DNA of 32,000 nt from Candidatus Hermodarchaeota archaeon (GTDB taxonomy: Archaea > Asgardarchaeota > Heimdallarchaeia > Hodarchaeales > Hodarchaeaceae), in the NCBI GenBank assembly GCA_048886185.1, contig JBHLKY010000030.1:1836-33835 (forward strand), given 5' to 3'. This document shows positions 1,830-24,851 of this stretch, in pieces. The notes under the pieces are model-generated. The model did no database searches, was not told where the DNA came from, and worked only from the letters and a program-made list of their open reading frames with translations. A program made the translations under genes and the position numbers. Each line of letters begins with the position of its first letter. The first letter of the stretch is position 1.

Positions 1830-1856
1830 GTGAAGAATAATATTTAATCCAGTAGA

Positions 1857-3648
1857 GTGGTTTAACATAAGAATAATTAACCTTAATTTCGATAAATGCA
1901 AACCAGACCTCTGTGGGTACGCTTGTCTCAAATATTGTCCTTTAGTAATAAAGGGAGAAAAAAATGTCATTAAAATCCGAAAAAGCACTGGTAAACCTAT
2001 TATCAATAACAATAAATGCCTACTTGCTAAAAAGGGAACTTGTGGTATTTGTATCAATAAATGTTTTCCAAGAGCGATAAGTGTTGTCACTCTTCCCACT
2101 CCTGAAACTGCAGGCCACCAAGTCCATTGTTATGGCGAAAATGGGTTCCGATTTTATGGTGTGCCCCAAATTAGCCCTGGAAAGGTAATTGGTTTACTAG
2201 GTGTAAATGGTATTGGTAAATCGACACTTTTAGAAATCCTAGCGGGCAGAAAACTTCCAAATGGGGGTAATTTTCATAACCCAAAACAAGGATTTCAGGA
2301 CTTTTCATCTCAATTATCTGTTGCTAGTTTTCGACAATTCCTCACAGACCTTTCAACTGATAAATTATCAGTTGCATATAAACCTCAAGTCTTTTCGGAG
2401 CTCCTGACGATAACAAGTTCAGTTCAGGAAATTATTTCTAGCAGACAGCAAAAGGGCTTATTTTCTGAACAGGAAATCATTGATTTAATGGAACTAGAAT
2501 CGATTTTGGATCGAAATCCCTCTGAATTATCTGGGGGGGAATTACAAAGGTTAGCTATTGGTAGAGCGTTGTCACAAAATGTTGACATCTATTTAATCGA
2601 TGAACCCTGCACGTTTCTTGATTTTCGTCAGCGTATAAAAATGGGAACAATTTTTCAAAGGTTGGCTAAAGCTGGAAAAGTGATTTTTATCGCTGAACAC
2701 GATATTGCTATTCATGATTTTCAAAGTGACATAATCTATATTTTCTATGGTGAGCCACATAAATTTGGGGTCATTTCACGATTAGCTTACTCTGTTAAAA
2801 AAGGAATTAACAATTTTCTTCTCGGTAAATTGAAAGATGAAAACATCAGGATTCGCGGAAAAGAAATAATTTTCACTAGAGTGGTGAAAGAGCGACAGTG
2901 GGAAGGAATTCCTGGTATTGATTATCCTTCCTTTACGAAACAGTTAGGATCTTTTACTTTGAATGCAAATAAGGGAACCGTTCATTTTGGGGGAATACTT
3001 TGTGTTTTAGGCGAGAATGGATTAGGGAAAACGACTTTTGCTAGATATTTATATAAAACATTAAAAACAGCTACAATTTCATATAAACCTCAATTCTTAC
3101 ATAGAAGCTTTAAGGGGACTGTTCGTGAATTTCTAACTCGTTATTCGAACACTTATATAGATTCTAATGAGTTTAAACTTTACATTCTTAAGCCATTTTC
3201 AATTTCACACCTTTTAGAAAAACCAATAAGTGCTTTAAGTGGGGGGGAGTTACAGCGATGCTTTCTAGCAGGAAGTCTAGGGAAAAAAGCTGATTTATAT
3301 ATTATTGATGAAGGAAGTGCCTTTCTAGACGTTGAGGAGAGATTGAATGCAACACGGGTCATTCGTCACATAATATCGAAGAATAAAGCAGCCTGTATTG
3401 CAATCGAACATGATATACAGATCGCGGAAGCCTTAGCTGACACAATATTATTGTTTGAGGGGAATCCTGGATATCAAGGAAAAACAGTAGGCCCTTTCTC
3501 GAAGAGAGAAGGCATGAATCGTTTTTTAAAAAGAATTAACACAACTTTTAGGCGTGATCCAGAAACAGGCCGCGCGCGTCTAAATAAACCTGGAAGTCGG
3601 CTAGATCGGGAACAACGGGTAATTGGGGCCTATTATTATGACTTATAA
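1857..3648 (+). CDS. ABCE1: Ribosome recycling ATPase ABCE1/Rli with N-terminal 2x[4Fe-4S] domain. The true 5' end is upstream of the track's 2161 start; start is GTG 1857 via a +1 shift/indel, or ATA 1867
   Basis: The reading frame of 2161 stays open back to 1834 and encodes IRIINLNFDKCKPDLCGYACLKYCP...KCLLAKKGTCGICINKCFPRAI (RLI Fe-S domain). Two NBDs (GVNGIGKST, GENGLGKTT, LSGGELQR twice, DEP/DEG, EHD). Typical C-terminus TFRRDPETGRARLNKPGSRLDREQ...YYY. Confidence 0.93.
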
Positions 3649-5086: not shown

Positions 5087-5638
5087 TTAAATGAAAATTC
5101 TAAAATCATGCCAAGAAAAATCGTTGGGAGCAATGATATCGAGCAACTTTGGCTCATTTTTAAGTTTTAACAGATTATTGACGCGTATTTCCCAAATCTT
5201 ATTTATTTTTTTAAGTTCAAGTGAACTTAAGGTGATTTCAGTTGGAATAAGTAGGAGTTTACCCACACAATTGAGAACCAGAATTAGCTCGTGATAATCA
5301 TTCCACCAAGGCAAACGGACATCAATCAGTAGTGCAATATACCTTACATTTGTTTGTTGAATTATAGGGTGAATAAGGTAAAATAGGATATTCAGTTTAT
5401 TTTTAAGTATTATAAATTCACAATAGTGTCCAAAACATGTAATACGTAATATTGGAATTTCTCGCCAGTGAATTAGACTTGGATTATCTGGGTGATGACA
5501 TAGAGAGGTGAGAAAGGTAATACCAATTCTCTTTATTCGACCCATCTCCAAAGTGGCTTCTATTCGTGCATCACGGTCAAATGAATAATGAAGGGATTCA
5601 TTTCTTTCAAAAATTTCGTGAATAAGTTTGCAGTTCAT
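5087..5638 (-). CDS. Hypothetical protein, 183 aa
   Basis: Long ORF with ATG and GAGGA SD-like motif, downstream of the GTPase operon. No motif recognised. Confidence 0.6.
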   Translation of the reverse strand: MNCKLIHEIFERNESLHYSFDRDARIEATLEMGRIKRIGITFLTSLCHHPDNPSLIHWREIPILRITCFGHYCEFIILKNKLNILFYLIHPIIQQTNVRYIALLIDVRLPWWNDYHELILVLNCVGKLLLIPTEITLSSLELKKINKIWEIRVNNLLKLKNEPKLLDIIAPNDFSWHDFRIFI

Positions 5639-5756: not shown

Positions 5757-6686
5757 TCAAGATTCTATCATGCTTTTCAACTGGGAACTAAAAGCAAGTA
5801 CCTTGTTGTATAAAGTAGGAATTTGCTCATTTTTCTCTTTAAGACGATCTTTTGGAAACCCAAAGAATAAAGCGAGGCCACCTTCAATGAATCTGATAAT
5901 AAAAACTTGACGATCAGATTCTAATAAAACTGATGTAGTGTTCTGATTTCTTTGATTTGATAGGCGTTGAAATACAGCATCAAAAAAGCTTTTCACCTCT
6001 AGGAGAGATATATGGTCAAATCGCGAAACATCTTGAACTTTTGTTAAGGGAGCACCTTCTTTTGTAAATATTTGAGCCATATCGGCTGCATTATGACGAA
6101 TGAACGTTTCTAATAGTGGTTTGAGAGTTTTTCGTGCACCACTGGCTTCTGCATAAACATCACCCATTGCCCTGAAAATTGAATCGGTAAAAACAGAGGT
6201 TGAATAGAATTTTATCTCTTGAGTAACACCAGAGGAAATATACTCTTTGATCGTAATTTTAACTTCGTCTCTGAGTCTTTTTGGTATTTGATCTGTTTTA
6301 TGTTGAAAAATGAAGACAGTCGCATCTGGACTAAATTGTTTTAATTTATTTAATGATAAATCCAAGTAATATTTAGCACGTGATATTTCATTTATTTTTA
6401 TTGAGTCAACAACGAATACTAAAGATTTGACCCCACTGAATATAAACTCTGATAACTCCCCTGTAAATCGATCCAGAAATGCTGTTTGGCCTCCTAGATC
6501 AAAAATGGTGAGTTCTGTTCCTGCAATGGTTTTTTGTTTCCGTTCATAATCAATAGTCGGGTTATACGATTCTCCTTTTTGGGGGATTTTTCCTTCAGTT
6601 ACTACTTTTATAATAGTAGATTTCCCAGACTCTGCTAGCCCTAGAATCAGAATTTTACTTGTTTTCTTTCGTGCAAGGTATGACAT
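5757..6686 (-). CDS. Rag/Gtr1-like small GTPase with C-terminal roadblock-like domain
   Basis: G1 GLAESGKST, G2 YNPTIDYE, G3 DLGGQ, G4 HKTD, G5 TSV. C-terminal alpha/beta domain (MAQIFTKEGAPL...SVLLESDRQVFIIRFI...LALFFG plus terminal helix). Confidence 0.88.
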   Translation of the reverse strand: MSYLARKKTSKILILGLAESGKSTIIKVVTEGKIPQKGESYNPTIDYERKQKTIAGTELTIFDLGGQTAFLDRFTGELSEFIFSGVKSLVFVVDSIKINEISRAKYYLDLSLNKLKQFSPDATVFIFQHKTDQIPKRLRDEVKITIKEYISSGVTQEIKFYSTSVFTDSIFRAMGDVYAEASGARKTLKPLLETFIRHNAADMAQIFTKEGAPLTKVQDVSRFDHISLLEVKSFFDAVFQRLSNQRNQNTTSVLLESDRQVFIIRFIEGGLALFFGFPKDRLKEKNEQIPTLYNKVLAFSSQLKSMIES

Positions 6687-6700
6687 TCTCTTGACCTCTA

Positions 6701-7495
6701 TTATACGCCAATTTTCTGAATAGTTCCAATTTTTTCAAGGAGTAAATCACGTTCGATAGGATCTGATACATCACGGATAGTAAATTCATTTTTAAAACGA
6801 TTTGTATTCAGATTTGATGCGGCCCGACTGGCAAAAAACATAAGTCGTTGGGGGGTTGCATCATCTAATTTAATTAGAAATATTCGTTTAATTACCCCGT
6901 TAATCAATATTAATATGGAATAGGCGGTGAGGTCACTACTTGAATCCAGTTTGATTAATTCACCTTCTTTATCAACGGTGAAGAATTCTAATCCACCCTT
7001 TTCAGGTATGTATAGAGGTGTTTCTGGCTGGATAAAGGGTATTTCTTTGGATGAAATGTCTTTAATTCGATTTAGAATTCGCTCCATTATTGTTGGGTCA
7101 TATAGATTGTCTTCGATATGGATTGTACGAATCTCTTCTTGGAGTGCCTGTTCAATGACAGTATGTTGAAGGAAAACCCGATTTCGATCTTTTGACTCAA
7201 ACAATAGCCAGATAGTCGATTCTCGGCCATGTTGGTCGATTCGTACATCATCTGTTTTTGTTGGAGTAACAGTAAATGACATTGCTAAGGCTTCTAAATC
7301 TGGTGAATCAGGAATCGGAATGGAACCGTGTAAGCGATAATGTTGCTTTTCTGCAACAGTTCCTGCTCCCATGGAGAGAATTGTCATTCCGATAACACTT
7401 AATTTTACAGTGGTATCCTCTGATATTGGGGACAAATTCAAGAGTGGAAATGGTCCCATATCGGTCATTGTGGTTACAATGAGTCCAGAAATCAT
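6701..7495 (-). CDS. Longin/uDENN-like N-terminal domain fused to a gelsolin-like C-terminal domain (tentative)
   Basis: N-terminus GLIVTTMTDMGPFPLLNLSP resembles uDENN/longin starts. C-terminus ILILINGVIKRIFLIKLDDATPQRLMFFASRAASNL resembles gelsolin-like repeats. Recognised by eye only. Confidence 0.55.
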   Translation of the reverse strand: MISGLIVTTMTDMGPFPLLNLSPISEDTTVKLSVIGMTILSMGAGTVAEKQHYRLHGSIPIPDSPDLEALAMSFTVTPTKTDDVRIDQHGRESTIWLLFESKDRNRVFLQHTVIEQALQEEIRTIHIEDNLYDPTIMERILNRIKDISSKEIPFIQPETPLYIPEKGGLEFFTVDKEGELIKLDSSSDLTAYSILILINGVIKRIFLIKLDDATPQRLMFFASRAASNLNTNRFKNEFTIRDVSDPIERDLLLEKIGTIQKIGV

Positions 7496-7515: not shown

Positions 7516-8472
7516 CTAGTTCGCCTTATATTTCAGCAAAGATGTTATTTCAGTTGATATTTCAAGACATACTTGTTCAATAGTAGAATAAGATTCAGAA
7601 TTTAATCTGAATGTCGATTCTATTCCAATTAATACTAATTTTGTTCCAATATTAACAAGTTGAGTAATCATTAAAAAGTCTTCAATTCGAAGAACATTTG
7701 TTTTTGCCTCGGGGGCTATATCAAAAGCCTCATATTGGTCTAGCATCTTGATAATTTGAGGTCCGACTTTCTCTTGCCAACTTTGGTTTTTTCCTATTGC
7801 TAAAAGAATCTTATGGCTTGGAGACAATAAAAAAGCTCCAGCGATGCCATATGTCTTCATTTTCTCTTCTAGTCTTTCTTTAATTCGACGTTTATTTACC
7901 AGATCTAGATTTAGTTGTGCTTCCAAAGGTCTATCTTGGGAGAATTTACTAAAATCAGCAGCTTTATTTATTATCTGAGTAAAGATTAGGTTGGTTAATC
8001 GTTGTTCATCAGGCCCTTTCAATGAAACAATATAAGATGGGATTTCATTAGGAAAGAATTGTTGAAAGTTTTTGATGACTGTGTCTTTTATTTTGTTTCT
8101 TTCAACCTCACTAGTTATTAAATGTCCACGGTTTAGTAAAAGAACAACTCGAAAATTTTTGTTTACACTACTAATATCTGCAGTTATCCTTTGAAAATCC
8201 GATGAGATCTCATCTAAAAGTTGATAGGAGATATCGTGTATGTAAATAAGCGTGTTTATTTTCATTAAGATCTTTTCACGAATAGAAGGAAGTAAGCTAG
8301 TAATATAAGTCTCTTCTTTCTTTGAATGAGAGGGATTTAACCAATCATAGTAAAAAACGTTCTGTAATATCTTAAGATTTGGTTCTGTCCGTCCTAACTT
8401 CATCATTTGGCTAAAAAGTAGGTCTTTTCCAGAATGAGATAACCCGGATAATGCGATGAGGTTTTGACGCAA
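7516..8472 (-). CDS. Degenerate (pseudo) small GTPase with C-terminal roadblock-like domain
   Basis: TTG start with GAGGAG SD. G1 GLSHSGKD (D instead of S/T), G3 DWLNP, G4 NRGH. C-terminal domain IAGAFLLSPSHKILL...NVLRIEDFLMITQLV...LVLIG. Confidence 0.65.
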   Translation of the reverse strand: MRQNLIALSGLSHSGKDLLFSQMMKLGRTEPNLKILQNVFYYDWLNPSHSKKEETYITSLLPSIREKILMKINTLIYIHDISYQLLDEISSDFQRITADISSVNKNFRVVLLLNRGHLITSEVERNKIKDTVIKNFQQFFPNEIPSYIVSLKGPDEQRLTNLIFTQIINKAADFSKFSQDRPLEAQLNLDLVNKRRIKERLEEKMKTYGIAGAFLLSPSHKILLAIGKNQSWQEKVGPQIIKMLDQYEAFDIAPEAKTNVLRIEDFLMITQLVNIGTKLVLIGIESTFRLNSESYSTIEQVCLEISTEITSLLKYKAN

Positions 8473-8482
8473 TGTGACTCCT

Positions 8483-9487
8483 CTAAATTGGTGTTTTGAG
8501 CATTGATTCTAGCTGCATGGACAGAAGTTTAACAGTTTCTTCAATCTCTGCTAAATTTCTAGTTTCTAACATAGATTTTTCATCACTGGAGACTAGAATT
8601 AGTAAATGATGTGGTTGTAACTTAGATTTGTACATCATTACTGCTCCTAGCCTTTTTAATTCAGATTTCGATCCAGTGATTAATTTTAGATCTTTTGATT
8701 TATCCAAAAGAGTCAATAGTTGTTGGATTTCACTATCTTCTAACTCGGAGGCATTAATTCTGAAATTGGGATCCTCCAGCGAAATTAGAATGACTTCATC
8801 TAATCGGTTCATAAATTTAAGAGTGTGAAGTACCTGTTGAATAGGTCGAAGGCGAAGCCTTTGTTTAATCGCTTCTAAGTCTTCCTCTTCTTTCATGCTT
8901 TCTACTTCAGGAATAACTTCACTAGCTTCTGCTGTTATCCGTTTAAATGCTTCATGGATCGAATTATCATAAATGGATGTTTGCAAAAATGTTATGTTTT
9001 TGTTTGATGCCGCATCTTGAAACATTTCCATAAGAAATTCCATTCGTTCAGCCCGTTGAGTAAGATCGGGCATGAGATCAGTCTTGTGCAGCAGGACATA
9101 GACAGCAGGTTGTACATCAGACATCTCTTCCAAACGGCTGACACCTTCAACAAAGGCCTTGAGTGAAGCTGGAAATTTATCTGGAGTAGCAATATCACAG
9201 ATGAAAACTAAGACCGCAACATTACTGAAGATGAATGAACTCATACTACTCAAAAAACGTTTTAAAAAAACCTCTTGTCCTCCTAAATCCATAACAGTGA
9301 TGGGCTCGTCTGCAACCTGCTCAATCTGTCGTTCATAATTTAACGTCGCTGCATAATCCTTGGTTTCCTCTGGTGCCTTACCTTCAAAAACAACGTCACG
9401 AATGGATGTTTTTCCCGCCTGCGAGAGTCCTAGTAAGATTATCTTCCGTGCGCTCTGCGTTTTCAGCTGTTTCAAGTAATGACTCAT
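8483..9487 (-). CDS. Rag/Gtr1-like small GTPase with C-terminal roadblock-like domain
   Basis: G1 GLSQAGKTS, G2 YAATLNYE, G3 DLGGQ, G4 HKTD, G5 TSI. Acidic linker, then an alpha/beta C-terminal domain. Confidence 0.9.
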   Translation of the reverse strand: MSHYLKQLKTQSARKIILLGLSQAGKTSIRDVVFEGKAPEETKDYAATLNYERQIEQVADEPITVMDLGGQEVFLKRFLSSMSSFIFSNVAVLVFICDIATPDKFPASLKAFVEGVSRLEEMSDVQPAVYVLLHKTDLMPDLTQRAERMEFLMEMFQDAASNKNITFLQTSIYDNSIHEAFKRITAEASEVIPEVESMKEEEDLEAIKQRLRLRPIQQVLHTLKFMNRLDEVILISLEDPNFRINASELEDSEIQQLLTLLDKSKDLKLITGSKSELKRLGAVMMYKSKLQPHHLLILVSSDEKSMLETRNLAEIEETVKLLSMQLESMLKTPI

Positions 9488-11575: not shown

Positions 11576-11829
11576 AGCTCTCTTTTCCTTTATGAGGTAT
11601 TTGATTCTGATTAGCCTATTAAGTCAATGTATTGGTTTCGTGAACTTAATATTATCTTCTTCTTGCTTGTTTTATTAAGTTTGCATTACACTTCATAATA
11701 CAGTTAAATTTTATCAAAATAAGGAAAATTTAAAATTCTTTGTACCTTAAAGAAAGCAAACGATCTTATTATCCAAATTTTCGCCAAAAAAGTATTAATC
11801 ATGTTAATTTTCAAATTGAGGAGTTAAAC

Positions 11830-12732
11830 ATGAAAATTTCACTTGTTGGACTTAGTGGTTGCGGTAAAACATCAATCTATTTCACTACATTGGGTGGGAT
11901 GGCTCCTATGGAGACCAGTGATTTCGGGCCGACCATTATGTATGAGGTGAAGTCCCATAATTACTTGGGTCTTCAAATATCCCTGTGGGACTTCGGAGGG
12001 CAAGAAAAATATAGGCAATCGTACCTCGAGACACCTAAACTTCTCGCTAACACCACGGTGTTGGTTTTAGTCCTTGATCTCCATCATCCTGAGGATTTTA
12101 AGAAAGCAGACGATTACTTTAGGCAGGTTTATTCCGCTATTAAAGAAAATGGAGGAGATCCTCGTTTAATAATTTTCTTTCATAAATATGATACAGAGCA
12201 ATATCTTAAGGAACAGCTTGAAGAGAATCTCGACAAAGCTAGAGAATTACCATTTGTCCGAGAACTTAATCCTGAATCCTTTGTTACATCTATTTATAGA
12301 CAAGAGGAATTAAGTGAGGTTTTTCGTCAAATCTTGATTTCAGACTTTGATAAATTAAAAAATAGCGTTGAACACGCTCAAAACCAACTCATGAAGCTGA
12401 ATTCAAAGATCATTGTGAGTGATGTGAATGGAAATGTTATTACTCATAGTATCAAGGGTTTTTCAACGGGAATCCAGCTTCGTGAAGATTTGCGTGATTA
12501 TATTCTTTCCTGTAATGTATTACGTGAAAATTTCCTCACAAGTGATTCAGCTTCTTTTTCTGCCATTTCTGATTCAAAGACATTAGAATTGCATATTTTT
12601 AATTTTGTTCTAGCTGTACTCATTATGGTAGATAAAGGGGTAAAAGTTGATCCCCCTGAAGATATCGAAGCTTTGCTAAAAGATATGAAAGTGTTTGCAG
12701 AATTAATCATTGAAGCTAGTAGAGAAGATTAA
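11830..12732 (+). CDS. Rag/Gtr1-like small GTPase with C-terminal roadblock-like domain (start revised from 11740 to ATG 11830)
   Basis: GAGGAG SD precedes ATG 11830 (MKISLVG). G1 GLSGCGKTS, G2 GPTIMYE, G3 DFGGQ, G4 HKYD, G5 TSI. C-terminal KIIVSDVNGNVITHS roadblock-like strand-turn-strand. Confidence 0.88.
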   Translation: MKISLVGLSGCGKTSIYFTTLGGMAPMETSDFGPTIMYEVKSHNYLGLQISLWDFGGQEKYRQSYLETPKLLANTTVLVLVLDLHHPEDFKKADDYFRQVYSAIKENGGDPRLIIFFHKYDTEQYLKEQLEENLDKARELPFVRELNPESFVTSIYRQEELSEVFRQILISDFDKLKNSVEHAQNQLMKLNSKIIVSDVNGNVITHSIKGFSTGIQLREDLRDYILSCNVLRENFLTSDSASFSAISDSKTLELHIFNFVLAVLIMVDKGVKVDPPEDIEALLKDMKVFAELIIEASRED

Positions 12733-13099: not shown

Positions 13100-13585
13100 T
13101 TGATTGTTGAAGAAATAGGGAATACAACCCTTCAAAAGATATTTACATCAAAAAAGAGGAGTCGAAGTAGCTTAATCCCAATTTTACAAGACATACAAAG
13201 TGAATTTGGGTATTTATCTAAAGAAAACATGATTCATATTGGGGAATATATTGGAATGTCATTTAACGAAGTTTATGGGGTTGCTTCATTCTATAAACAA
13301 TTCAAATTTGTTAAATCTGGAAAACATATAATAACTGTATGTTTAGGAACAGCTTGCTTTGTAAAGGGCGGTCAAATACTCGCTGAAACTGTAAGAACAA
13401 AATTAGGTATTAATCCAGATGAAACTACAGAGGATAGGTTATTTAGTTTTGAACGTGTTGCTTGTTTAGGATGTTGTGCCTTATCTCCAGTTGTTCAAAT
13501 TGATGGGGAAGTTTATGGAGAAATGAAACCAGCAAAATTACTTCGAATTATCAATAACATAATTAGGGAAGAAAATAATAAGTAG
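13100..13585 (+). CDS. NuoE/HydC-like [2Fe-2S] subunit
   Basis: TTG start with GGAGG SD. LIPILQDIQ, VYGVASFY, CLGTACFVKG and CLGCCALSP motifs. Confidence 0.95.
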   Translation: MIVEEIGNTTLQKIFTSKKRSRSSLIPILQDIQSEFGYLSKENMIHIGEYIGMSFNEVYGVASFYKQFKFVKSGKHIITVCLGTACFVKGGQILAETVRTKLGINPDETTEDRLFSFERVACLGCCALSPVVQIDGEVYGEMKPAKLLRIINNIIREENNK

Positions 13586-13596
13586 GTAACTGGATA

Positions 13597-15423
13597 ATGA
13601 CCAAAAAAAATTCTTCTCTTAGAACAGTTCTAATTTGCCAAGGAACAGGATGTATCTCATCAAAATCAAATGAGATTAAAGAGGAATTTGAAGAACAGAT
13701 AATTGCGGAGGGTCTAGAAAATGAGGTGAAAGTAGACTTCACTGGTTGTCATGGATTCTGTGCTCAAGGTCCTATTGTGATAATTGAACCAGATGGAATT
13801 TTGTATTGTAAGATTAAAGTGGTAAATGTCAAAAACATTGTTACTTCACATTTGAAAAACATCCGGCCTGTTGAAGAATACTTTTACACCGATCCTAAAT
13901 CTGGAAGGAGAATATCAAAGTATAAAGATATTCCTTTTTATAGTAAACAGACACGAATGATTTTAGGTAACTGCGGACACATTAATCCTGAAAATATTGA
14001 CGATTATTTGCACATTGGTGGTTATTCAGGACTTAAACGAGCATTGAAAACCTCTCCCGAAGAGGTTATTCAAATTATTAAAAATTCTGGTTTACGTGGG
14101 AGAGGAGGCGCAGGTTTCCCAACTGGCATGAAATGGGAATTCTGTCGTAATGCACCTGGAAACGAGAAATACATTATTTGTAATGCAGATGAAGGAGATC
14201 CTGGAGCTTTTATGGATCGTTCAATACTTGAAGCAGATCCACACAGCGTTTTAGAAGGAATGATTATCGGAGCATATGCCATTGGCGCTTCTAAAGGCAT
14301 TATCTATGTTCGTGCTGAATATCCTTTAGCAGTTAAGCGTTTTAGATTTGCTCTTGAAACAGCAAGAAAAAATGGATTTCTTGGAGAAAATATTCTAAAT
14401 AATGGATTTTCATTCGATATTTCCGTTCATGAAGGTGCAGGCGCTTTTGTTTGTGGCGAAGAGACAGCATTGATGGCCTCAATAGAAGGAAACAGAGGTA
14501 ATCCACGACCTAGGCCACCATTTCCAGCAGAGTCTGGCCTTTGGGGTAAACCCACCAATATCAATAATGTAAAGACATGGGCTTCTACTGCGTGGATTTT
14601 TAAAAATAGTTGGGAGAAGTTTCACGCTATTGGTGTTGAACATGCACCTGGTACAGCGATTTTCTCACTAACAGGGAAAGTTAAGAATTTGGGCTTAATA
14701 GAAGTACCTATGGGTATCAGTATAAGAGAAATCGTCTATGAAATAGGTGGTGGTATTTTAGATGATAAGGAATTTAAAGCTGTTCAGACTGGAGGTCCTT
14801 CAGGTGGATGTTTACCAAAAAGTCATTTAGACTCCCCTGTTGATTATGAAAGCATGGCTACTTCTGGTAGTATTATGGGTTCAGGTGGAATGATTGTTCT
14901 TGATGAAACTGATTGTATGGTAAAATTAGCTCATTATTTCATAACATTTACACAAGCTGAGTCTTGTGGGAAATGTGTCCCCTGTCGGATCGGAACAAGA
15001 GCAATGTTGGTTATTCTAGATCGGATTATAAAAGGAGAGGGTGAAGACCGAGACCTCATGCTTTTAGAAGAATTAGCCAATACGGTAAAAATGGGATCAT
15101 TATGTGGGCTTGGCCAAACCGCACCAAATCCCGTATTAACTACATTGAAATATTTTCGTAATGAGTATCAGACCCATATTTTTGAAAAACGTTGTCCTGC
15201 TAAAGATTGTCAAGATCTGATTGAATACGTAATTGATGAAGCTATTTGTAATGGATGTACATTATGTGCCCGCAACTGCCCAATGAAGGTCATCACAGGG
15301 ATTAAAGGAGCTACTCACATGATTGATACAAATAGGTGCATTAGATGTGGTATCTGTTTCAAAAGTTGTCCTAGAAACGCAGTGTACAAAAGGGATCGGT
15401 ATCCTCAGCAGGTGAAAAGATGA
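13597..15423 (+). CDS. HydB-type (NuoF family) FMN/NADH-binding subunit with N-terminal [2Fe-2S] and C-terminal 2x[4Fe-4S] domains
   Basis: CQGTGC...GCHGFC, GRGGAGFPTG, NADEGDPGAFMDR, GAGAFVCGEETAL, ESCGKCVPCRIG, SLCGLGQ, and two CxxCxxCxxxCP motifs. Confidence 0.95.
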   Translation: MTKKNSSLRTVLICQGTGCISSKSNEIKEEFEEQIIAEGLENEVKVDFTGCHGFCAQGPIVIIEPDGILYCKIKVVNVKNIVTSHLKNIRPVEEYFYTDPKSGRRISKYKDIPFYSKQTRMILGNCGHINPENIDDYLHIGGYSGLKRALKTSPEEVIQIIKNSGLRGRGGAGFPTGMKWEFCRNAPGNEKYIICNADEGDPGAFMDRSILEADPHSVLEGMIIGAYAIGASKGIIYVRAEYPLAVKRFRFALETARKNGFLGENILNNGFSFDISVHEGAGAFVCGEETALMASIEGNRGNPRPRPPFPAESGLWGKPTNINNVKTWASTAWIFKNSWEKFHAIGVEHAPGTAIFSLTGKVKNLGLIEVPMGISIREIVYEIGGGILDDKEFKAVQTGGPSGGCLPKSHLDSPVDYESMATSGSIMGSGGMIVLDETDCMVKLAHYFITFTQAESCGKCVPCRIGTRAMLVILDRIIKGEGEDRDLMLLEELANTVKMGSLCGLGQTAPNPVLTTLKYFRNEYQTHIFEKRCPAKDCQDLIEYVIDEAICNGCTLCARNCPMKVITGIKGATHMIDTNRCIRCGICFKSCPRNAVYKRDRYPQQVKR

Positions 15424-17030
15424 CTAAATGGATGACTATCAACGGAAAACGTGTAGTGTTCGAGGAAGGAGAAACAGTACTCGAAGTTGCAACAAAAGCA
15501 GGGATATATATCCCCACTCTCTGTGCGAGACCTGATCTTCCTTCAATAGGTGCATGTCGCCTATGTATTGTAGAAGTCGAAGCTGGTCGGGGATTTTCCA
15601 ATTCTTGTACTTTACCAGCAAGAGAAGGAATGATTGTCAGAACAGAAACACCTAATATCAGAGCGATAAGACGAAACATTTTCCAATTAATTCTTTCGGA
15701 ACATCCTAGCTCTTGTATTGTATGTAATAATCAGGAGGAGTGTGAGGAAGTCCGTCATGGAGAGTACAAGGCGGGTCGAGTGATTGGTTGTTACACATGC
15801 AGTAATAAGGATCGATGTGAAATCAGAGAGCTGGCCGAATACTTACGAATAAAAGAAATCCGATTTCCAAAGTTGTATAAGAATTTGCCATTAGAACGGG
15901 AAGATCCATTTCTTGTTCGAGATTATAATCTCTGTATTCTCTGTGCTCGATGTATTAGAGCGTGTCAGAATGTTTTGGGGCATAGTGCTATCACACTCAC
16001 TAAACGAGGTCATGATACAAAAGTAGGAACATTACTAGAAATCCCTCATCTTGAAAGTGGATGTGTATTTTGTGGGCATTGTATAGATGTTTGTCCGACA
16101 GGAGCATTAACTGCTCGAGGATCTAAGTGGTTTGGTACTCCTGATAAGTCAATAGAAACAACATGCGTTTTATGTTCACATAATTGTCAAATGGTCATCG
16201 ATATAAAATGGGATAAAGTTGTAAATGTTCATCCACCTTATGAGATGTCAGCTCGTCGTGAATATTGTGTTAAGGGCCGTTTTTGCATTCCCGCACTAAT
16301 TAACGGCCGAGATCGTCTTCAATATCCAATGATTAAGCGTACAATCATTAAAGAGGAACTCTTTCCTGCATCTTGGGAAGAAGCCATTAATTATGCTGCA
16401 GAGAATTTGAAAAAGTTTAAACCTGAAGAGATAGGTATTTTTATTTCTCCATTTTTAACAGATGAGGCTGTATTCATACTTAACAAGTTCGCTCTACAAG
16501 TAAGCGAGAATAATATTGCTTATGACGACAAAGCACTCCAAGATTTAGCAGCTCAAGGAATCAAATTATTATATGCAACACAAAGATCCAAAGAACTTCT
16601 TAAAATGAAGGATCTAGAATTCTTAATTCTTCAAGATATTTATTATTCTAACTATTGTGAAATAGCAGGGGTTATTTTTCCAATGACAGCTTTTACTGAA
16701 GAGGAAGGCACAAAAACAGGAGATGAATTCATGAGAAATCCAGTTAGACAGGCAGCTGAACCAGTTGGGCTTGCTCTTCCTAGTTGGGATATTACCAATC
16801 GTTTGGCAAAGGCTATGAACTTAGAAGGATTCTCATATAGCTCACTGAACGATGTTCAGGATGATATTGTGAAAGAAGATCCTATTGAAATCCCATTGGT
16901 TCCAAAATCTTCCCTTGAATACTTAGGAATTCCTTTTGTTGAGAAAGTAAAAGATTTTCAAACTTTTTTTAATGCTAAACGACTAATCCATAAAACAAAA
17001 GGCAAAGGTGAGTTCATTGTCAATTTATAA
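15420..17030 (+). CDS. NuoG/FdhA-like Fe-S subunit with an internally deleted, cofactor-less molybdopterin-oxidoreductase domain
   Basis: IPTLC...GACRLC...SC [2Fe-2S]; HxxxCxxCxxxxxC; CILCARCIRAC and CVFCGHCIDVCP; TTCVLCSHNC...CVKGRF. No H-cluster motifs, no Mo-ligand Cys/Sec segment. 4-nt overlap with the upstream gene. Confidence 0.85.
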   Translation: MTKWMTINGKRVVFEEGETVLEVATKAGIYIPTLCARPDLPSIGACRLCIVEVEAGRGFSNSCTLPAREGMIVRTETPNIRAIRRNIFQLILSEHPSSCIVCNNQEECEEVRHGEYKAGRVIGCYTCSNKDRCEIRELAEYLRIKEIRFPKLYKNLPLEREDPFLVRDYNLCILCARCIRACQNVLGHSAITLTKRGHDTKVGTLLEIPHLESGCVFCGHCIDVCPTGALTARGSKWFGTPDKSIETTCVLCSHNCQMVIDIKWDKVVNVHPPYEMSARREYCVKGRFCIPALINGRDRLQYPMIKRTIIKEELFPASWEEAINYAAENLKKFKPEEIGIFISPFLTDEAVFILNKFALQVSENNIAYDDKALQDLAAQGIKLLYATQRSKELLKMKDLEFLILQDIYYSNYCEIAGVIFPMTAFTEEEGTKTGDEFMRNPVRQAAEPVGLALPSWDITNRLAKAMNLEGFSYSSLNDVQDDIVKEDPIEIPLVPKSSLEYLGIPFVEKVKDFQTFFNAKRLIHKTKGKGEFIVNL

Positions 17031-17904
17031 TATCGTTAAAAAATATGAATGTGTTCCAAACATCCATAAGTTAATCATCTCAGTACCAGAAATAGCTAAA
17101 AAGGCCCAACCAGGGCAATTCGTACTCGTAATGGTAGATGAGAAATCTGAGAGAATTCCATTAACAATTGCTGATTGGGATGTGACTACAGGAACTATTA
17201 CATTATTTGTTCAAGAAGTTGGATTGTCTACAACAAAATTTGCTTTTATGGAAGAAGGAGATTCATTTTTTAGTATTGTGGGCCCCTTAGGAAAACCTGC
17301 CTACCTGGATAAATTTGGAACTGTAGTATTGGGAGGTGGTTGTTTTGGGATTGGAGCTATCTATTCAATAGCTAAAAAGCTCAAGAAATTGGAAAATTAC
17401 GTTATCACTATAATTGAGGCAAGAAATGACTGGCTTTTGTATTTTGAGGATGAATTTCAATCTATAAGTGATGAAGTTATCGTGACAACTAGTGATGGGT
17501 CAAAAGGATCAAAAGGGTATATCTATGATGTTCTTGACAATATGATTACAGAAGGACGGGAAATTGATCATATAAAAGTTATTGGATGTAATGTCATGAT
17601 GAGTAAGGTTTCAGCCCTCACTAAAGAAAAAGGTTCCATTCCAACCTATGCAACTGTCTCAGCAATTATGGTGGATGGTACTGGGATGTGTGGAGCTTGT
17701 CGTTTGACATATGATGGAAAAACAAAATTTGCATGCGTGGATGGCCCAGAGTTCAATGCACACAAAATTGATTGGGAGGAACTAATACAAATCCGAAATA
17801 CAACTTATATTCAGGAGGAAACCCTTGCTTTCCAAACTCATTCCCCACAATGTCTATCTCTAAAGAGATTTGCAGAAATAAAAGATGAAGAGGAATTATT
17901 TTGA
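17008..17904 (+). CDS. nfnA: NfnA/SudB-like FAD/[2Fe-2S] subunit (PyrK family)
   Basis: AQPGQFV...ERIPLTIAD, GPLG, MVDGTGMCGACR and CVDGPEF motifs; GTG start overlapping the upstream gene. Confidence 0.9.
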   Translation: MSSLSIYNIVKKYECVPNIHKLIISVPEIAKKAQPGQFVLVMVDEKSERIPLTIADWDVTTGTITLFVQEVGLSTTKFAFMEEGDSFFSIVGPLGKPAYLDKFGTVVLGGGCFGIGAIYSIAKKLKKLENYVITIIEARNDWLLYFEDEFQSISDEVIVTTSDGSKGSKGYIYDVLDNMITEGREIDHIKVIGCNVMMSKVSALTKEKGSIPTYATVSAIMVDGTGMCGACRLTYDGKTKFACVDGPEFNAHKIDWEELIQIRNTTYIQEETLAFQTHSPQCLSLKRFAEIKDEEELF

Positions 17905-19634
17905 AGGCAAAGGAAAGAATGCAAATTTCTAGGGTGTCTATGCCAAGTCAACCTCCAGAGGTACGTGTTAAGAACTTCCGTGAGGTTCCTTATGGTTACA
18001 CAGAAGAAATGGCTGTAGAAGAAGCCAACCGTTGTCTTGGATGTAAAACACCAAAATGTATCGAGGGGTGTCCTGTTCGTGTACCAATTCCAGAGTTTAT
18101 CACATTAATACAAGAAAGAAAGTTTGCAGAAGCAGCATGGAAAATTAAAGAAACAAATGTCCTCCCAGCAATATGTGGACGTGTATGTCCTCAAGAGGCA
18201 CAATGTGAGGGAAAGTGTGTTCGTACGAAAAAGGGCGAATCTGTTGCTGTTGGTAACCTTGAACGATTTGTTGCTGATTATGAACGGTTAAAAGATATTG
18301 TTCCTAAAATAAATATCGTGCAAAAAAATGGGAAAAAAGTGGCAGTTATAGGGAGTGGTCCCTCGGGGTTGACTGTTGCAGGAGATTTAATAAAATTAGG
18401 ATATGAGGTAATCATTTTTGAAGCGTTTCACCTTGGTGGTGGCGTTCTTGTTTATGGAATTCCGGAATTTCGTTTACCTAAAGCAGTTGTGGAATATGAG
18501 ATACAGAATCTTAGCAAACTAGGAGTACAAATCTCTTATAATCATGTAGTTGGCCGTATTAAAACCATTGGGGAACTATTTGCTAATGATGATTTTGATG
18601 CTGTTTATATTGGTGTTGGAGCTGGTTTACCAGTTTTTATGAATATTCCAGGGGAAAACCTTATTGGGGTCTATTCTGCCAATGAATATCTTACACGCTC
18701 AAATTTAATGAAATCATATCTTTTCCCCGAGTATAATACTCCTTTAGTAAGTGGAAAAGATGTTGTGGTCGTGGGTGGAGGGAATACTGCAATGGATGCT
18801 TCTAGAACCGCTATACGATTAGGGGCAGCTAATGTTTACCTTGTCTATCGTCGCTCAAGAGAACAGATGCCTGCGCGAACATTGGAGGTACATCACGCTG
18901 AAGAAGAGGGAATTCAATTCAAACTTTTATCTAATCCTGTTGAGATCATTGGTGACGAAAAAGGTCGAGTTAAAGCAGTTACTTGTCAAAGATATCGTCT
19001 TGGAGAACCAGATAAATCTGGAAGAGCTCGTCCTATACCAATAGAAGGTGAGTTCTTTGAGCTAAAAACTGATTTAGTCATTATAGCTGTCGGAACGGGG
19101 GCGAATCCTCTAATCACAGCCACAACACCAGATCTAGAAACTAATAAGTGGGGGTATCTCGTAGCAGACGAGATGGGCCGTACTAGTAAACCATTTGTAT
19201 ATGCAGGTGGCGACATTGTTACAGGAACAGCAACTGTAATTTCAGCAATGGGGGCGGGTCGTCGAGCAGCTCAAGCAATACATGAGGATCTCTTTCCAGT
19301 GGTCAAGGAAGAACCCGAAAGAATTCGAATAGTTTCCGAGATTATACAAGTAAAAGAAGCCATAATACATCCTGAATCTACAACAATGAAAATTATATTA
19401 GCCAATACATCAGGAAGAGATCTCAAGAATCTAAAAATTGTTGTTTCACATCTCTTTGATTTGTTTGAAGAACCCTTATTTAATACATCTGTCTCAAGCT
19501 GGCCATCAAATGAAGAGCTGGAACTTGATTGTCCCCGAATTCATAAAAATGAAAAAGAATATCTTTTATCCATAAGAGATTTAGACAGAAAATTGTTATC
19601 AAAGCGACTTGTTGCTGAAGAACTAATGAAGTAA
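17901..19634 (+). CDS. nfnB: NfnB/SudA (GltD family) flavoprotein with an extra ~105-aa C-terminal domain
   Basis: EANRCLGC...CIEGCP, CGRVCPQEAQCE, GSGPSG, YGIPEFRLP, GGGNTAMD, YRR and AGGDIVTG. The core ends near HEDL; an extra domain follows. Confidence 0.93.
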   Translation: MKAKERMQISRVSMPSQPPEVRVKNFREVPYGYTEEMAVEEANRCLGCKTPKCIEGCPVRVPIPEFITLIQERKFAEAAWKIKETNVLPAICGRVCPQEAQCEGKCVRTKKGESVAVGNLERFVADYERLKDIVPKINIVQKNGKKVAVIGSGPSGLTVAGDLIKLGYEVIIFEAFHLGGGVLVYGIPEFRLPKAVVEYEIQNLSKLGVQISYNHVVGRIKTIGELFANDDFDAVYIGVGAGLPVFMNIPGENLIGVYSANEYLTRSNLMKSYLFPEYNTPLVSGKDVVVVGGGNTAMDASRTAIRLGAANVYLVYRRSREQMPARTLEVHHAEEEGIQFKLLSNPVEIIGDEKGRVKAVTCQRYRLGEPDKSGRARPIPIEGEFFELKTDLVIIAVGTGANPLITATTPDLETNKWGYLVADEMGRTSKPFVYAGGDIVTGTATVISAMGAGRRAAQAIHEDLFPVVKEEPERIRIVSEIIQVKEAIIHPESTTMKIILANTSGRDLKNLKIVVSHLFDLFEEPLFNTSVSSWPSNEELELDCPRIHKNEKEYLLSIRDLDRKLLSKRLVAEELMK

Positions 19635-20188: not shown

Positions 20189-21217
20189 CTATCCTTGAAT
20201 TCTTTTTAGCATTATTGTTTCATTTTCGTCTTCAATTTTAAGGAAATAGATCATACCAGTTCCTTCAGAGGGTTCAAATTCAAAGGAAATGATTTCTTTT
20301 GGGGCCCATTTTCTTATTTCTGAAATAAGGACATCTTTTCCGAAAAATCCATGTGATTCATATATTTTGAGAAGAACATTTTCTAAAATGGTTGAACTAA
20401 TGTTACGAACTGTGATACGAATGATTTTTTTGTCTTTAGGGGATTCAACTTGAATAATTTTTACACGTTTTGGTTCTGGTTTTAAGATTTCCTCTTTTTT
20501 ACTATCTGAAATCTCCTGTTGTTTTATTGTAGGTATTAAAAATCTTAATTTTTCTGGCCTTTTAGGTACTGAAGGGATACTAGGTTTCTGAAATTGATAG
20601 CTTTCTGAATTTGGTTTTTGCTCCAGTTCATTTTCTTTTAATTGTGCTTTAAGCTTTGTAATGGGGATTTTCGGAATTAAAGAATGATATTTACTCTCAA
20701 GGAGTTCTCTGATGTGTTTAGACCTTTCTATGACTTCTGGCTCTTTACTTTCCTCAAGTATATCTTCAATGAGGAAACGCAATCTTAAACTGACGTGATA
20801 ATTTTCGAGGGTTATTTTAAATTGGTACAATATTTCCTGAGCGATAAAAGAAACCGATGAAGGGGCCTTGACGATCAAAATAAATCTATCAAGTTGCCAT
20901 TTGGCAGATTCCATTCCTGAGCGTCTTTTAATTCTACGTGTTTCACAAAAAGATATTGTAGCACAGTAAATAACATCTCCTATCTCAAGATCGATGCTGG
21001 TAAACTTATCTGTATCTAGGAATTTTTCCTGGTGCCACCATACTGGATGAATGGATAATATTTGTTTTTCATTTTCATCGGTCAATAATTCTTCTGGATA
21101 TCCAAATAGTGGGACATGGCCTCTAATTTCGTCAAAAAAATAGAGAAAGAATCCATACGAATTGTCGCTGGCTAAAGAAACAATATTTTTTGTTGAGGGG
21201 ATATCCCCGTTACTCAT
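20189..21217 (-). CDS. Longin/uDENN-like N-terminal domain plus C-terminal beta-sandwich-like domain
   Basis: GFFLYFFDEIRGHVPLFGYPE start. Colinear similarity to 21697..22644 in both domains. Low-complexity Pro/Lys/Glu linker. AAGGAG SD. Confidence 0.65.
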   Translation of the reverse strand: MSNGDIPSTKNIVSLASDNSYGFFLYFFDEIRGHVPLFGYPEELLTDENEKQILSIHPVWWHQEKFLDTDKFTSIDLEIGDVIYCATISFCETRRIKRRSGMESAKWQLDRFILIVKAPSSVSFIAQEILYQFKITLENYHVSLRLRFLIEDILEESKEPEVIERSKHIRELLESKYHSLIPKIPITKLKAQLKENELEQKPNSESYQFQKPSIPSVPKRPEKLRFLIPTIKQQEISDSKKEEILKPEPKRVKIIQVESPKDKKIIRITVRNISSTILENVLLKIYESHGFFGKDVLISEIRKWAPKEIISFEFEPSEGTGMIYFLKIEDENETIMLKRIQG

Positions 21218-21696: not shown

Positions 21697-22644
21697 TTAA
21701 CTAGCATTAGTAGAAGCAATCTCAAGGGACTTTATGTCTATTGTTGTATTTCTACTAGTAATCTTTATCAAATACTTCCCAATTACGTCAGATTTGGAAA
21801 ATTCTAGGATTATATCTTCTTTTAAAGGCCATTCTTCAAGTTTATGCTCCCAAATAGTTTCACTAAAAAACTCTGTTCTTCTTGACACATGAATCCTTAT
21901 ATCATATAAATTTTCACTCTGATTAATTAATACTACCATTAATCTATTCTTATTTTCCTCTGTTGGTAAGACTCTCATGGTTATTTTTTGCTTAAACAAA
22001 TCCTGAGCACAAAGACTTGTCTCTACTGGAATCATGGAGGAATTGACTCGACTTGGTATTATCTCTGTGCTAAAAGGCTCTATATTTTTATTAATTCCAT
22101 AAACAAATTTTTTCCAAATATTTTTAAGGGACAATTCGATTTCTACGGCTTTTTTTAGTAATTCATCGTGTTCTCGTTTTTTGATCGGATTTAATGCCAA
22201 TTTTTCTCGTTGATATAATATCTCAAGATCTGAACCAATATCCGAATTTATTGTTGTTTTTAAATCAACAAATGCTTTAACGGGTATAGGATCACTATCT
22301 TTCCATTTTTTGATGACGATTCCATAGAGAGGGTGATCAATTGTTGACAACGATCCCTCTTGGGAATCTTCTTGAAGCTGAATAGCTGAGTAAACAAATT
22401 CTGAAAATTTTAAATCAATTCGAAAAGGAACATTTTCAATTTTCCACACACAATGAGTTTTTAGAATATTAATTTCATTTTGATTTTTTTTCAATTTTGA
22501 TGGGTATGAAAAGAGGATACGAAGGCCATGAGTAGTATCAAAAGAACACAAAAAAAATCCTATTAGGCCAACTTTTGAGTCAAAAGTTTGCTTATCGGTT
22601 GCAGGTTCAATATCAGTATCAAATACGGGATCGATATTCATCAT
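21697..22644 (-). CDS. Longin/uDENN-like N-terminal domain plus C-terminal beta-sandwich-like domain, paralog of 20189..21217
   Basis: GFFLCSFDTTHGLRILFSYP...NEINILKTHCVW matches GFFLYFFDEIRGHVPLFGYP...NEKQILSIHPVW. AAGGAG SD. Confidence 0.65.
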   Translation of the reverse strand: MMNIDPVFDTDIEPATDKQTFDSKVGLIGFFLCSFDTTHGLRILFSYPSKLKKNQNEINILKTHCVWKIENVPFRIDLKFSEFVYSAIQLQEDSQEGSLSTIDHPLYGIVIKKWKDSDPIPVKAFVDLKTTINSDIGSDLEILYQREKLALNPIKKREHDELLKKAVEIELSLKNIWKKFVYGINKNIEPFSTEIIPSRVNSSMIPVETSLCAQDLFKQKITMRVLPTEENKNRLMVVLINQSENLYDIRIHVSRRTEFFSETIWEHKLEEWPLKEDIILEFSKSDVIGKYLIKITSRNTTIDIKSLEIASTNAS

Positions 22645-22917: not shown

Positions 22918-24837
22918 ATGAAACAAAATTTTTTAGTATATTCTCATTTACTCACATCAGTAGAAACAATTCATCAAATAACTTTGGAACGTTTGGAGAA
23001 GAACATTTTGAGTACACAAGTGTGGGATCTCATTGTAGTGGGAGGTGGGCCTGCTGGTCTTTCTGGTGCTATTCGTGCTGCAGAATTAGGCCTTCATGTC
23101 CTTGTCCTCGAGGCACGTTCTGGAGTCGCTACCGCAGGTAGTATGGTTGTGGATGGGTATCCTGGCTTTTTTAGTATTACTCGCCAAGAACTACTAGATA
23201 AGATGGCTAAACAGGCGAAATATCATGCGACCATTAAGTATGCAGAGAAAGTTAGTAAACTTGAACTTCACGATCCTGTAAAAAGAGTTTACACACAGGT
23301 GACCAAAGGAGAGTTCTTCACCGAAGAGTTCATATATGACAGTAGGGCTATATTAATCGCTACTGGGGTTCAACCAAGGAAACTTGATATTCCCGGTGAA
23401 GGAAAATTCTGGAATCGTGGTGTATATTACTCTCTTCCAGACGAAGATTACTCGGAAAAAAATGTTGCTATTATAGGGCATACAGCTTGGGCGGTTAGAA
23501 ATGCACTTCATTATGATGCCATGGGCGCTCATGTTTACCTGATTACAAATAAGGAGGCAATTGATGTTCATCCTGCACTCATGAGAAGATTAAATGAGAG
23601 CTTTATTGAAGTTTTATACTCACATGAAATATTGTATTTTGAAGGTACAAATAAGTTAACTAAAACACGTCTTAAAAGTAGAGATGGAAAACAGTTTTCT
23701 ATCCTTACTAACATGGTATTGATCTTAAGTAGCAAGAGTACAAATCGTGAATTATTCCTAGATGCTGGTTTAGAGACTACACCTCAAGGAAATATTATTG
23801 TTTCATCACCCAATCAGAACACAAATATCCCTGGTGTTTTTGCTGCCGGTAGTGCTATAAGAGGTGATTCAGTTGTGGGTGTGGGGGCTGCTGAAGGTAT
23901 AAAAGCTGCAGAAGAAATATCTAAATATTTAGCTAGAATAGATGAAGAAAAGGAGGCTGAAGAACAACAAGAAAAGCCATCTCCTGTTCCTAGGTTCGTT
24001 GAAGGCAAATGTGTGATAGTTGAGAAAGAAGATCTTTCTCCAGAAATAGTCAAGTGGGTAGTTGAGGCACCTTTAATTGCAAAGAAAACTCAACCAGGCC
24101 AATTTGTGATTCTCAGAGTAGATGCAAACGGAGAACGAATTCCTTTAACTATAGCAGATAATGACAAAAACGCTGGGACGATAACTTTGATTTTTCAAAA
24201 AGTCGGAAAAAGTACTAAATTAATGGGAACCATGAAAACAGGTGATCATATTCTTAATCTTCTAGGTCCCTTGGGAAAACCCGTTGAAATTGAGAAATGG
24301 GGTACGGTGGCTGTTTTAGGTGGTGGTTGTGGTGTTGCCCCAGTACTACCTAAAGCTAAAGCACTTAAAGAGCGGGGGAATTATGTTGTGAGCATTATTT
24401 CAGCTAGAACTTCATCACTCTTGATTTGTCGTCAAGAGATGCAAGAAGCAAGTGATGAAATTCACATTGCTACTGATGATGGAACCTTAGGTCATCATGG
24501 GTTTGGACTTGATATCTTAAAACGTTTTGTGGAAGAAGGAAGACAGATAGATCATGTTGTAGCAGTTGGTCCTATTCCTATGATGAAATTCACTTGTGCT
24601 TTCACTAAAGAACATAACATTCCAACAACTGTTAGTTTAGCACCTATCATGGTAGATGGGACTGGAATGTGTGGCTCTTGTCGCGTGACTGTGGGTGGTG
24701 AGATTAAGTTTGCCTGTGTTGATGGTCCAAACTTTGATGGATTAAAAGTGGATTTTGAAGAATTAACCCTCAGATCAAGGGCTTATCTCTACGAGGAGCG
24801 AATTTCAACAGAAAAAATGGCTCGTGAGAAATCTTAG
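22918..24837 (+). CDS. nfnA: Fusion of a TrxB-like FAD oxidoreductase domain lacking CxxC with an NfnA/SudB domain (start may be TTG 23008)
   Basis: N-half: DLIVVGGGPAG, ILIATG, IPGE, TNIPGVFAAG. C-half: QPGQFV...ERIPLTIAD, GGGCGVAP, GPIPMM, MVDGTGMCGSCR, CVDGPNF. GGAG SD lies upstream of in-frame TTG 23008. Confidence 0.88.
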   Translation: MKQNFLVYSHLLTSVETIHQITLERLEKNILSTQVWDLIVVGGGPAGLSGAIRAAELGLHVLVLEARSGVATAGSMVVDGYPGFFSITRQELLDKMAKQAKYHATIKYAEKVSKLELHDPVKRVYTQVTKGEFFTEEFIYDSRAILIATGVQPRKLDIPGEGKFWNRGVYYSLPDEDYSEKNVAIIGHTAWAVRNALHYDAMGAHVYLITNKEAIDVHPALMRRLNESFIEVLYSHEILYFEGTNKLTKTRLKSRDGKQFSILTNMVLILSSKSTNRELFLDAGLETTPQGNIIVSSPNQNTNIPGVFAAGSAIRGDSVVGVGAAEGIKAAEEISKYLARIDEEKEAEEQQEKPSPVPRFVEGKCVIVEKEDLSPEIVKWVVEAPLIAKKTQPGQFVILRVDANGERIPLTIADNDKNAGTITLIFQKVGKSTKLMGTMKTGDHILNLLGPLGKPVEIEKWGTVAVLGGGCGVAPVLPKAKALKERGNYVVSIISARTSSLLICRQEMQEASDEIHIATDDGTLGHHGFGLDILKRFVEEGRQIDHVVAVGPIPMMKFTCAFTKEHNIPTTVSLAPIMVDGTGMCGSCRVTVGGEIKFACVDGPNFDGLKVDFEELTLRSRAYLYEERISTEKMAREKS

Positions 24838-24851
24838 GAGGAACTAGAAAT

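Follow-up and report, generated by a model that had tools for sequence, protein, structure and literature searches.

A two-domain protein encoded among Rag-like GTPase genes, in which an N-terminal longin is joined to a single gelsolin-fold domain, is likely to regulate or bind a GTPase of its own operon. With less assurance, we lean towards a dedicated regulator of these Rag-like GTPases, most likely a GAP-type off-switch. The product of the adjacent downstream gene, here called RagD, is its most likely partner. The gene lies in the window, the whole 32,000-nucleotide stretch analysed here, on a contig from Hodarchaeales. These are Asgard archaea, which are among the closest relatives of eukaryotes. 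The genes of the operon, in their order of transcription, and the features of the longin–gelsolin protein are the following:

8483–9487, minus strand: first gene of the operon, a Rag-like GTPase (RagU) with intact G-motifs (Gtr1_RagA, E = 1e-35).
7516–8472, minus strand: upstream degenerate Rag-like pseudo-GTPase (weak Gtr1_RagA match, E = 1.6e-4; orthologue alignment).
6701–7495, minus strand: longin–gelsolin fusion gene P0001, 264 aa (homologues, AF2 model, Foldseek and VIA fold matches).
7034–7495, minus strand: longin domain, residues 1–154, of the GAP-longin (GP-motif) class (VIA, hhalign).
7451–7462, minus strand: GP motif D12-x-G14-P15, between strands 1 and 2 (deep alignment).
7223–7249, minus strand: loop D83-x-R85-x4-G90-R91, ahead of the last longin strand (R85 codon, 7241–7243).
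7001–7033, minus strand: variable, disordered linker, about residues 155–165 (pLDDT <50, low conservation).
6716–7000, minus strand: single ProGel-related gelsolin-fold domain, about residues 166–260, with DWG lost and a long helix at 216–232 (VIA, profiles, alignment with free ProGels).
5757–6686, minus strand: downstream Rag-like GTPase (RagD), G1–G5 intact, with a presumed roadblock C-terminal domain (Gtr1_RagA, E = 3e-34).

The longin–gelsolin open reading frame starts with ATG, is preceded by a GGAG ribosome-binding site and is separated from its neighbours by gaps of 14–20 nt, that to the following GTPase gene being 14 nt; a promoter and terminator scan gave signal at chance level. It has 72 homologues (43–100% identity), the named ones mostly from Hodarchaeales/Heimdallarchaeota, and these, together with a confident fold, rule out an artefact or a wrong reading frame. 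Across 400 genomes of the phylum, matches at E ≤ 1e-10 were found in 84, nearly all of the same class, and mostly to the longin part. A Pfam search with the protein named neither domain, neither the whole protein nor the longin profile gave a significant match in Pfam or among PDB sequences, and a feature-based Atlas search returned solely the family's own cluster. One orthologue (L047:3455-4255, G057) carries an in-frame TAA two codons past the conserved G-R while the remaining operon is intact, and is either a pseudogene or an assembly error.

Structure prediction recovered both folds that the earlier note had proposed from sequence. The AF2 model, built from 71 sequences (pLDDT 84; whole-chain pTM 0.55), comprises two domains with a disordered linker at residues 154–165. 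In VIA comparisons, residues 1–154 matched the Lokiarchaeota longin 8yqg (Z = 13.0, rmsd 3.1, 139 aligned residues), C9orf72–SMCR8 (7o2w_A, Z = 11.7), Lst4 (Z = 11.6) and chains of GATOR1 and the folliculin complex (Z = 9–10). Foldseek likewise found a longin fold (E = 1e-5), and hhalign related the family to Asgard folliculin-like longins (P = 91%, E = 1e-6). These matches, together with the GP motif, bear out a longin of the FLCN/SMCR8/NPRL2 type. The gelsolin-like C-terminus was equally well recognized: residues 168–257 matched Thor ProGel 7c2f (Z = 11.3, rmsd 2.4, 87 aligned residues, 20% identity), further VIA matches were other gelsolins and Sec23a (Z = 8.3), and Foldseek agreed. By sequence, family profiles matched 7c2f_B (E = 5e-4 and 1.2e-5), and hhalign aligned the fused domain with free ProGels encoded in its own genome (P = 95%).

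The location inside a GTPase operon, also pointed out from the sequence, proved constant within the genus. Full-length matches were found at 20 loci of the genus, kin from one lineage and not independent events, and at every one of them the pseudo-GTPase lies upstream and RagD downstream; RagU holds its position in 19 of them, and the twentieth stops at the contig edge. The G-motifs of RagD are conserved in 115 homologues and the catalytic Gln of its DxxGQ is kept, while the P-loop of the pseudo-GTPase ends in GKD, its DxxG is missing and its G4 is altered. RagD likewise adjoins the longin–gelsolin gene at L037, and in three distant relatives (L014, L057 and L095; 36–41% identity) the gene precedes a GTPase of the same downstream subfamily; at L015 a Rag-like gene lies divergently upstream. 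Two other genes accompany the operon. A 183-aa ORF (5087–5638, minus strand), with no Pfam match or usable Atlas match, directly follows RagD in most genus loci (36–61% identity), and a further Rag-like GTPase on the opposite strand (11740–12732, plus strand) is conserved near the operon in several of them.

Gene fusions point to the same partner. P0078, seen on one contig only, is an in-frame longin–gelsolin–GTPase fusion to a RagD orthologue. In a second set of proteins, the same gelsolin domain stands behind a different longin without GP and D-x-R; one of these, P0114, found on two contigs that are 99.98% identical, is fused to a member of the RagD subfamily, and two others (P0104 and P0115, loci L093 and L094) adjoin a RagD-subfamily GTPase. 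In a short-alignment tree, nine GP-less forms make up a supported group inside the longin–gelsolin family, and most GP-less forms nest there. The gelsolin domain thus keeps its GTPase partner despite the exchange of the longin, which suggests that it functions within the GTPase circuit. A weak search, made in a crowded candidate set, found no fused forms of greater length.

Distant versions occur in other Heimdallarchaeia. At eight distant loci the proteins have ~255–270 aa and a C-terminal part that weakly matches the gelsolin profile; when the C-terminal part of one of them (P0093) was folded, a ProGel-like domain emerged (Z = 10.4). Upstream of the gene at five of these loci lie an Arf-like GTPase and a degenerate copy; this arrangement spans two other families. 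The remaining three have no GTPase neighbour, which weighs against a regulator, as do the single contig of P0078, the near-identity of the P0114 contigs and the kinship of the genus loci. At L060:4613-7423 and L063:6039-9099, the catalytic Gln after DxGG is replaced by His in the upstream Arf-like GTPases. The genome of the window holds two further likely longin–gelsolin paralogues (L008 and L009, the latter convergent with a Rag-like gene) and a GP-longin with weak TPR matches (L007). Very large genes, several with laminin-G matches, flank several longin–gelsolin loci (L012, L014, L094 and L095), and very long ORFs (1500–10000 aa) with weak Folliculin-family matches are found on G000:C13 and in relatives.

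Two conserved motifs link the longin to GAP complexes. In a deep alignment of 78 diverse relatives, G14 of the GP motif is kept in all 78, P15 in 77 and D12 in 73; the motif sits ahead of strand 2 (model strands E2-11 and E14-20). As defined in PMC12290439, it is present in FLCN, NPRL2, SMCR8, C9orf72 and some Asgard longins, and is reported there to be specific to GAP-complex longins. In the loop before the last strand, D83 is found in 78 of the same 78 relatives, R85 in 76, G90 in 75 and R91 in 68, and all four residues are invariant in the 69 close homologues that cover the site. The earlier note had named these residues correctly but miscounted their spacing as D-x-R-x-x-x-G-R; four residues, not three, separate R85 from G90.

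It had also placed the arginines where FLCN and SMCR8 carry their finger, which by sequence alignment is right for the loop but wrong for the column. The FLCN finger is Arg164. Asgard folliculin-like proteins, from the same genome and from relatives, carry D-P-x-A-R-G-x-x-R, which aligns without gaps, as a weak match (E = 0.03), with D160–R168 of human FLCN. In the profile register against these folliculin-like longins, D83 corresponds to D160, D87 to R164 and R91 to R168, and five extra residues precede the Asp in the longin–gelsolin family. By this transitive alignment, with its weak link to FLCN, the R164 column falls on the variable D87, where 9 of 78 relatives have Arg. R91 was rejected as the finger, aligning as it does with FLCN R168. 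R85 lies two residues before the R164 column, in a predicted short helix (84–89), and may be a displaced arginine finger or a structural residue; the latter is possible because R85 also persists in GP-longins that have no GTPase nearby or are joined to other domains (L007 and L008). A separate folliculin-like protein with a canonical A-R-G finger (L082, G000:C6) is encoded in the same genome.

Judged from these alignments, catalysis by a GAP mechanism through R85 is a possibility that falls just short of even. Of the two loop arginines, R85 is conserved better, but the A-R-G finger is out of register, L082 has the canonical finger and R85 persists where no GTPase is nearby. The protein might instead be a non-catalytic partner, scaffold or effector that binds the GTPase complex in the manner of FNIP, NPRL3 or C9orf72, perhaps pairing with a catalytic longin such as the folliculin-like protein of this genome, or modulating exchange. 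The want of an arginine at the R164 column fits such a role, as does the availability in trans of that canonical-finger protein, and C9orf72 itself, though non-catalytic, carries the GP motif (PMC12290439). We nonetheless regard this as unlikely, given the conservation of R85 within the finger loop and an operon that contains no second stand-alone longin gene.

The gelsolin domain has diverged from its free relatives at the positions of known motifs. Its DWG motif is absent, with N199 replacing D and no W or G at 208–211. W-x-G and the V-R-x-R-F helix start both persist in four free ProGel/1DGelX-type proteins encoded by this genome, whereas W-x-G is gone from every fused domain in the alignments viewed. 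In the long helix, R217, F220 and A222 are shared with the free ProGels, R217 alone being kept of the basic pair; over the fused family, the helix start is poorly conserved and N230, K/R235, D245, E248 and K255 are conserved instead. There is no conserved acidic residue at S193 or L218, which, by our numbering of gelsolin, we take to be the expected type II calcium positions. In a tree, a long branch, partly a selection effect, parts the fused domains from the free ones. The loss of calcium ligands reveals little about actin because ProGel, which has no calcium sites, nevertheless binds actin, if weakly (PMC7444086, PMC9433394).

Meaningful binding of actin by the fused domain appears, from its residues, rather doubtful. 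Were it retained, the protein could couple GTPases to actin, as the earlier note proposed, the longin handling the GTPase and the gelsolin domain binding filaments weakly and independently of calcium, in the manner of ProGel; the regulator would then be placed on the cytoskeleton, or the GTPase would control actin. Such a coupler would be in keeping with the closest solved relative, the actin-binding Thor ProGel, itself a weak binder without calcium sites, with the residues of the long helix shared with free ProGels and with an actin encoded in the genome. It is improbable in view of the W-x-G lost from the fused domains and kept in the free proteins, the poorly conserved helix start and the long branch; at the loci examined no actin gene was found, and the gelsolin domain co-occurs with a GTPase instead. 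That the protein would be both a GAP for an operon GTPase, via a displaced finger at R85, and a binder of actin filaments is quite improbable.

The weakest alternative, a Sec23-like GAP whose gelsolin domain would contribute R249 as the arginine, by analogy with Sec23 and Sar1, draws on the fold match to Sec23a and on the presence of R249 in 65 of 71 close homologues, but is highly improbable, since R249 is found in 63 of 101 rows overall and 4 of the 36 most distant ones, position 250 is mostly E and the ProGel match is better (Z = 11.3 versus 8.3). R249 lies in the last helix of the gelsolin domain, at what we presume to be the counterpart of the Sec23 finger.

We return to a dedicated regulator of the operon's Rag-like GTPases. 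This reading is favoured by a fold nearest to GAP-complex and Loki longins, the GP motif, the conservation of R85, the catalytic Gln kept in RagD, the synteny, the P0078 fusion, the tie between gelsolin domain and GTPase that outlasts the longin swap and the Arf-like GTPase genes with degenerate copies ahead of distant members. Alongside the observed folds, motifs, sequence-based register, synteny and fusions, we infer steps of docking, dimerization and hydrolysis. The GP-class longin would dock on one of the neighbouring GTPases, most likely RagD, at the G domain, and would probably do so within a longin dimer, as in FLCN–FNIP2. R85 would supply the finger that accelerates hydrolysis, from a loop that exceeds folliculin's by five residues, with D83 and R91 holding the loop. 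The ProGel-derived domain would serve as a calcium-independent interaction module that binds or places the GTPase complex, and actin may or may not remain its ligand. A complex prediction with two copies of the protein, RagD, GTP and Mg gave a median of 0.17 against a mark of 0.32 and was counted neither for nor against.

With FLCN (FLCN–FNIP2, acting with RagC/D), NPRL2 (GATOR1) and SMCR8 (C9orf72–SMCR8–WDR41), the protein has in common the longin fold, the GP motif, the association with Rag-like GTPases and the conserved Asp and closing Arg of the finger loop (D160 and R168 in FLCN). Unlike all three, it has no Arg at the R164 column, a loop longer by five residues, a conserved Arg two residues earlier and a gelsolin domain in place of DENN or the C-terminal part of NPRL2. 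It is thus akin to longin GAP subunits but, by finger position and C-terminal domain, not strictly one of them. The GP class is shared with Asgard longins that combine GP and an arginine finger (PMC12290439) and with NPRL2-like and FLCN-like Asgard longins (bioRxiv 10.1101/2020.10.19.343400); here, however, D-x-R-x4-G-R replaces the D-x-x-A-R-G of the aligned folliculin-like proteins, and the Pfam Folliculin family missed the protein. The gelsolin domain is homologous to the single domains of Thorarchaeota ProGel/1DGelX/2DGel (20% identity), and ProGel likewise has no calcium sites (PMC7444086, PMC9433394), but here DWG is lost, the domain is C-terminal to a longin and it is encoded beside GTPases. 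It is a ProGel homologue that falls outside that class by its DWG positions, and the longin–gelsolin architecture is not among the three described Asgard gelsolin types. Sec23, a GAP, likewise contains a gelsolin-fold domain that is not known to bind actin; here the zinc finger, trunk and helical domains of Sec23 are missing, and the candidate arginine is not conserved in distant members.

GP- and arginine-bearing Asgard longins, Asgard Rag-like pairs and single gelsolins are already published (PMC10933270 among the sources). The gelsolin fusion is absent from the main texts of PMC12290439 and bioRxiv 10.1101/2020.10.19.343400, and an incomplete literature search, with supplementary tables outside its scope, returned no published description of it. 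Small GTPases and longins abound in Asgard archaea, and pairing the GTPases with GAPs or GEFs is reported to be difficult, the genes usually lying outside operons (PMC10933270). The Asgard GP-class longin has been proposed to be a GAP, with its partner GTPase left open and the question posed of which GTPases GP-motif longins target (PMC12290439). The present locus names a candidate regulator–target pair through synteny and fusion, makes the question of the pair assayable with four small proteins and adds a gelsolin architecture for which we found no description. Should actin binding survive, the GTPases would be tied to the Asgard cytoskeleton, and if GAP activity and actin binding both hold, the protein would provide a direct GTPase–actin link in the closest archaeal relatives of eukaryotes. 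If actin is not bound, a ProGel-derived domain would have been put to new use by a GTPase regulator before eukaryotes arose, with Sec23 as a parallel.

Elsewhere in the window, the N-termini of two ORFs (20189–21217 and 21697–22644, minus strand) look longin/uDENN-like by eye; neither has a Pfam match, and their longin-profile scores are insignificant. An ABCE1/RLI gene (1852–3648, plus strand), listed as an ORF from 2161, extends in frame to about 1852, which takes in the Fe-S domain, with no ATG, GTG or TTG to start it, and probably uses a non-standard start codon. To judge by eye from their translations, two plus-strand clusters (13100–19634 and 22918–26270) resemble subunits of bifurcating hydrogenase/NADH-dehydrogenase and NfnAB-type oxidoreductases.
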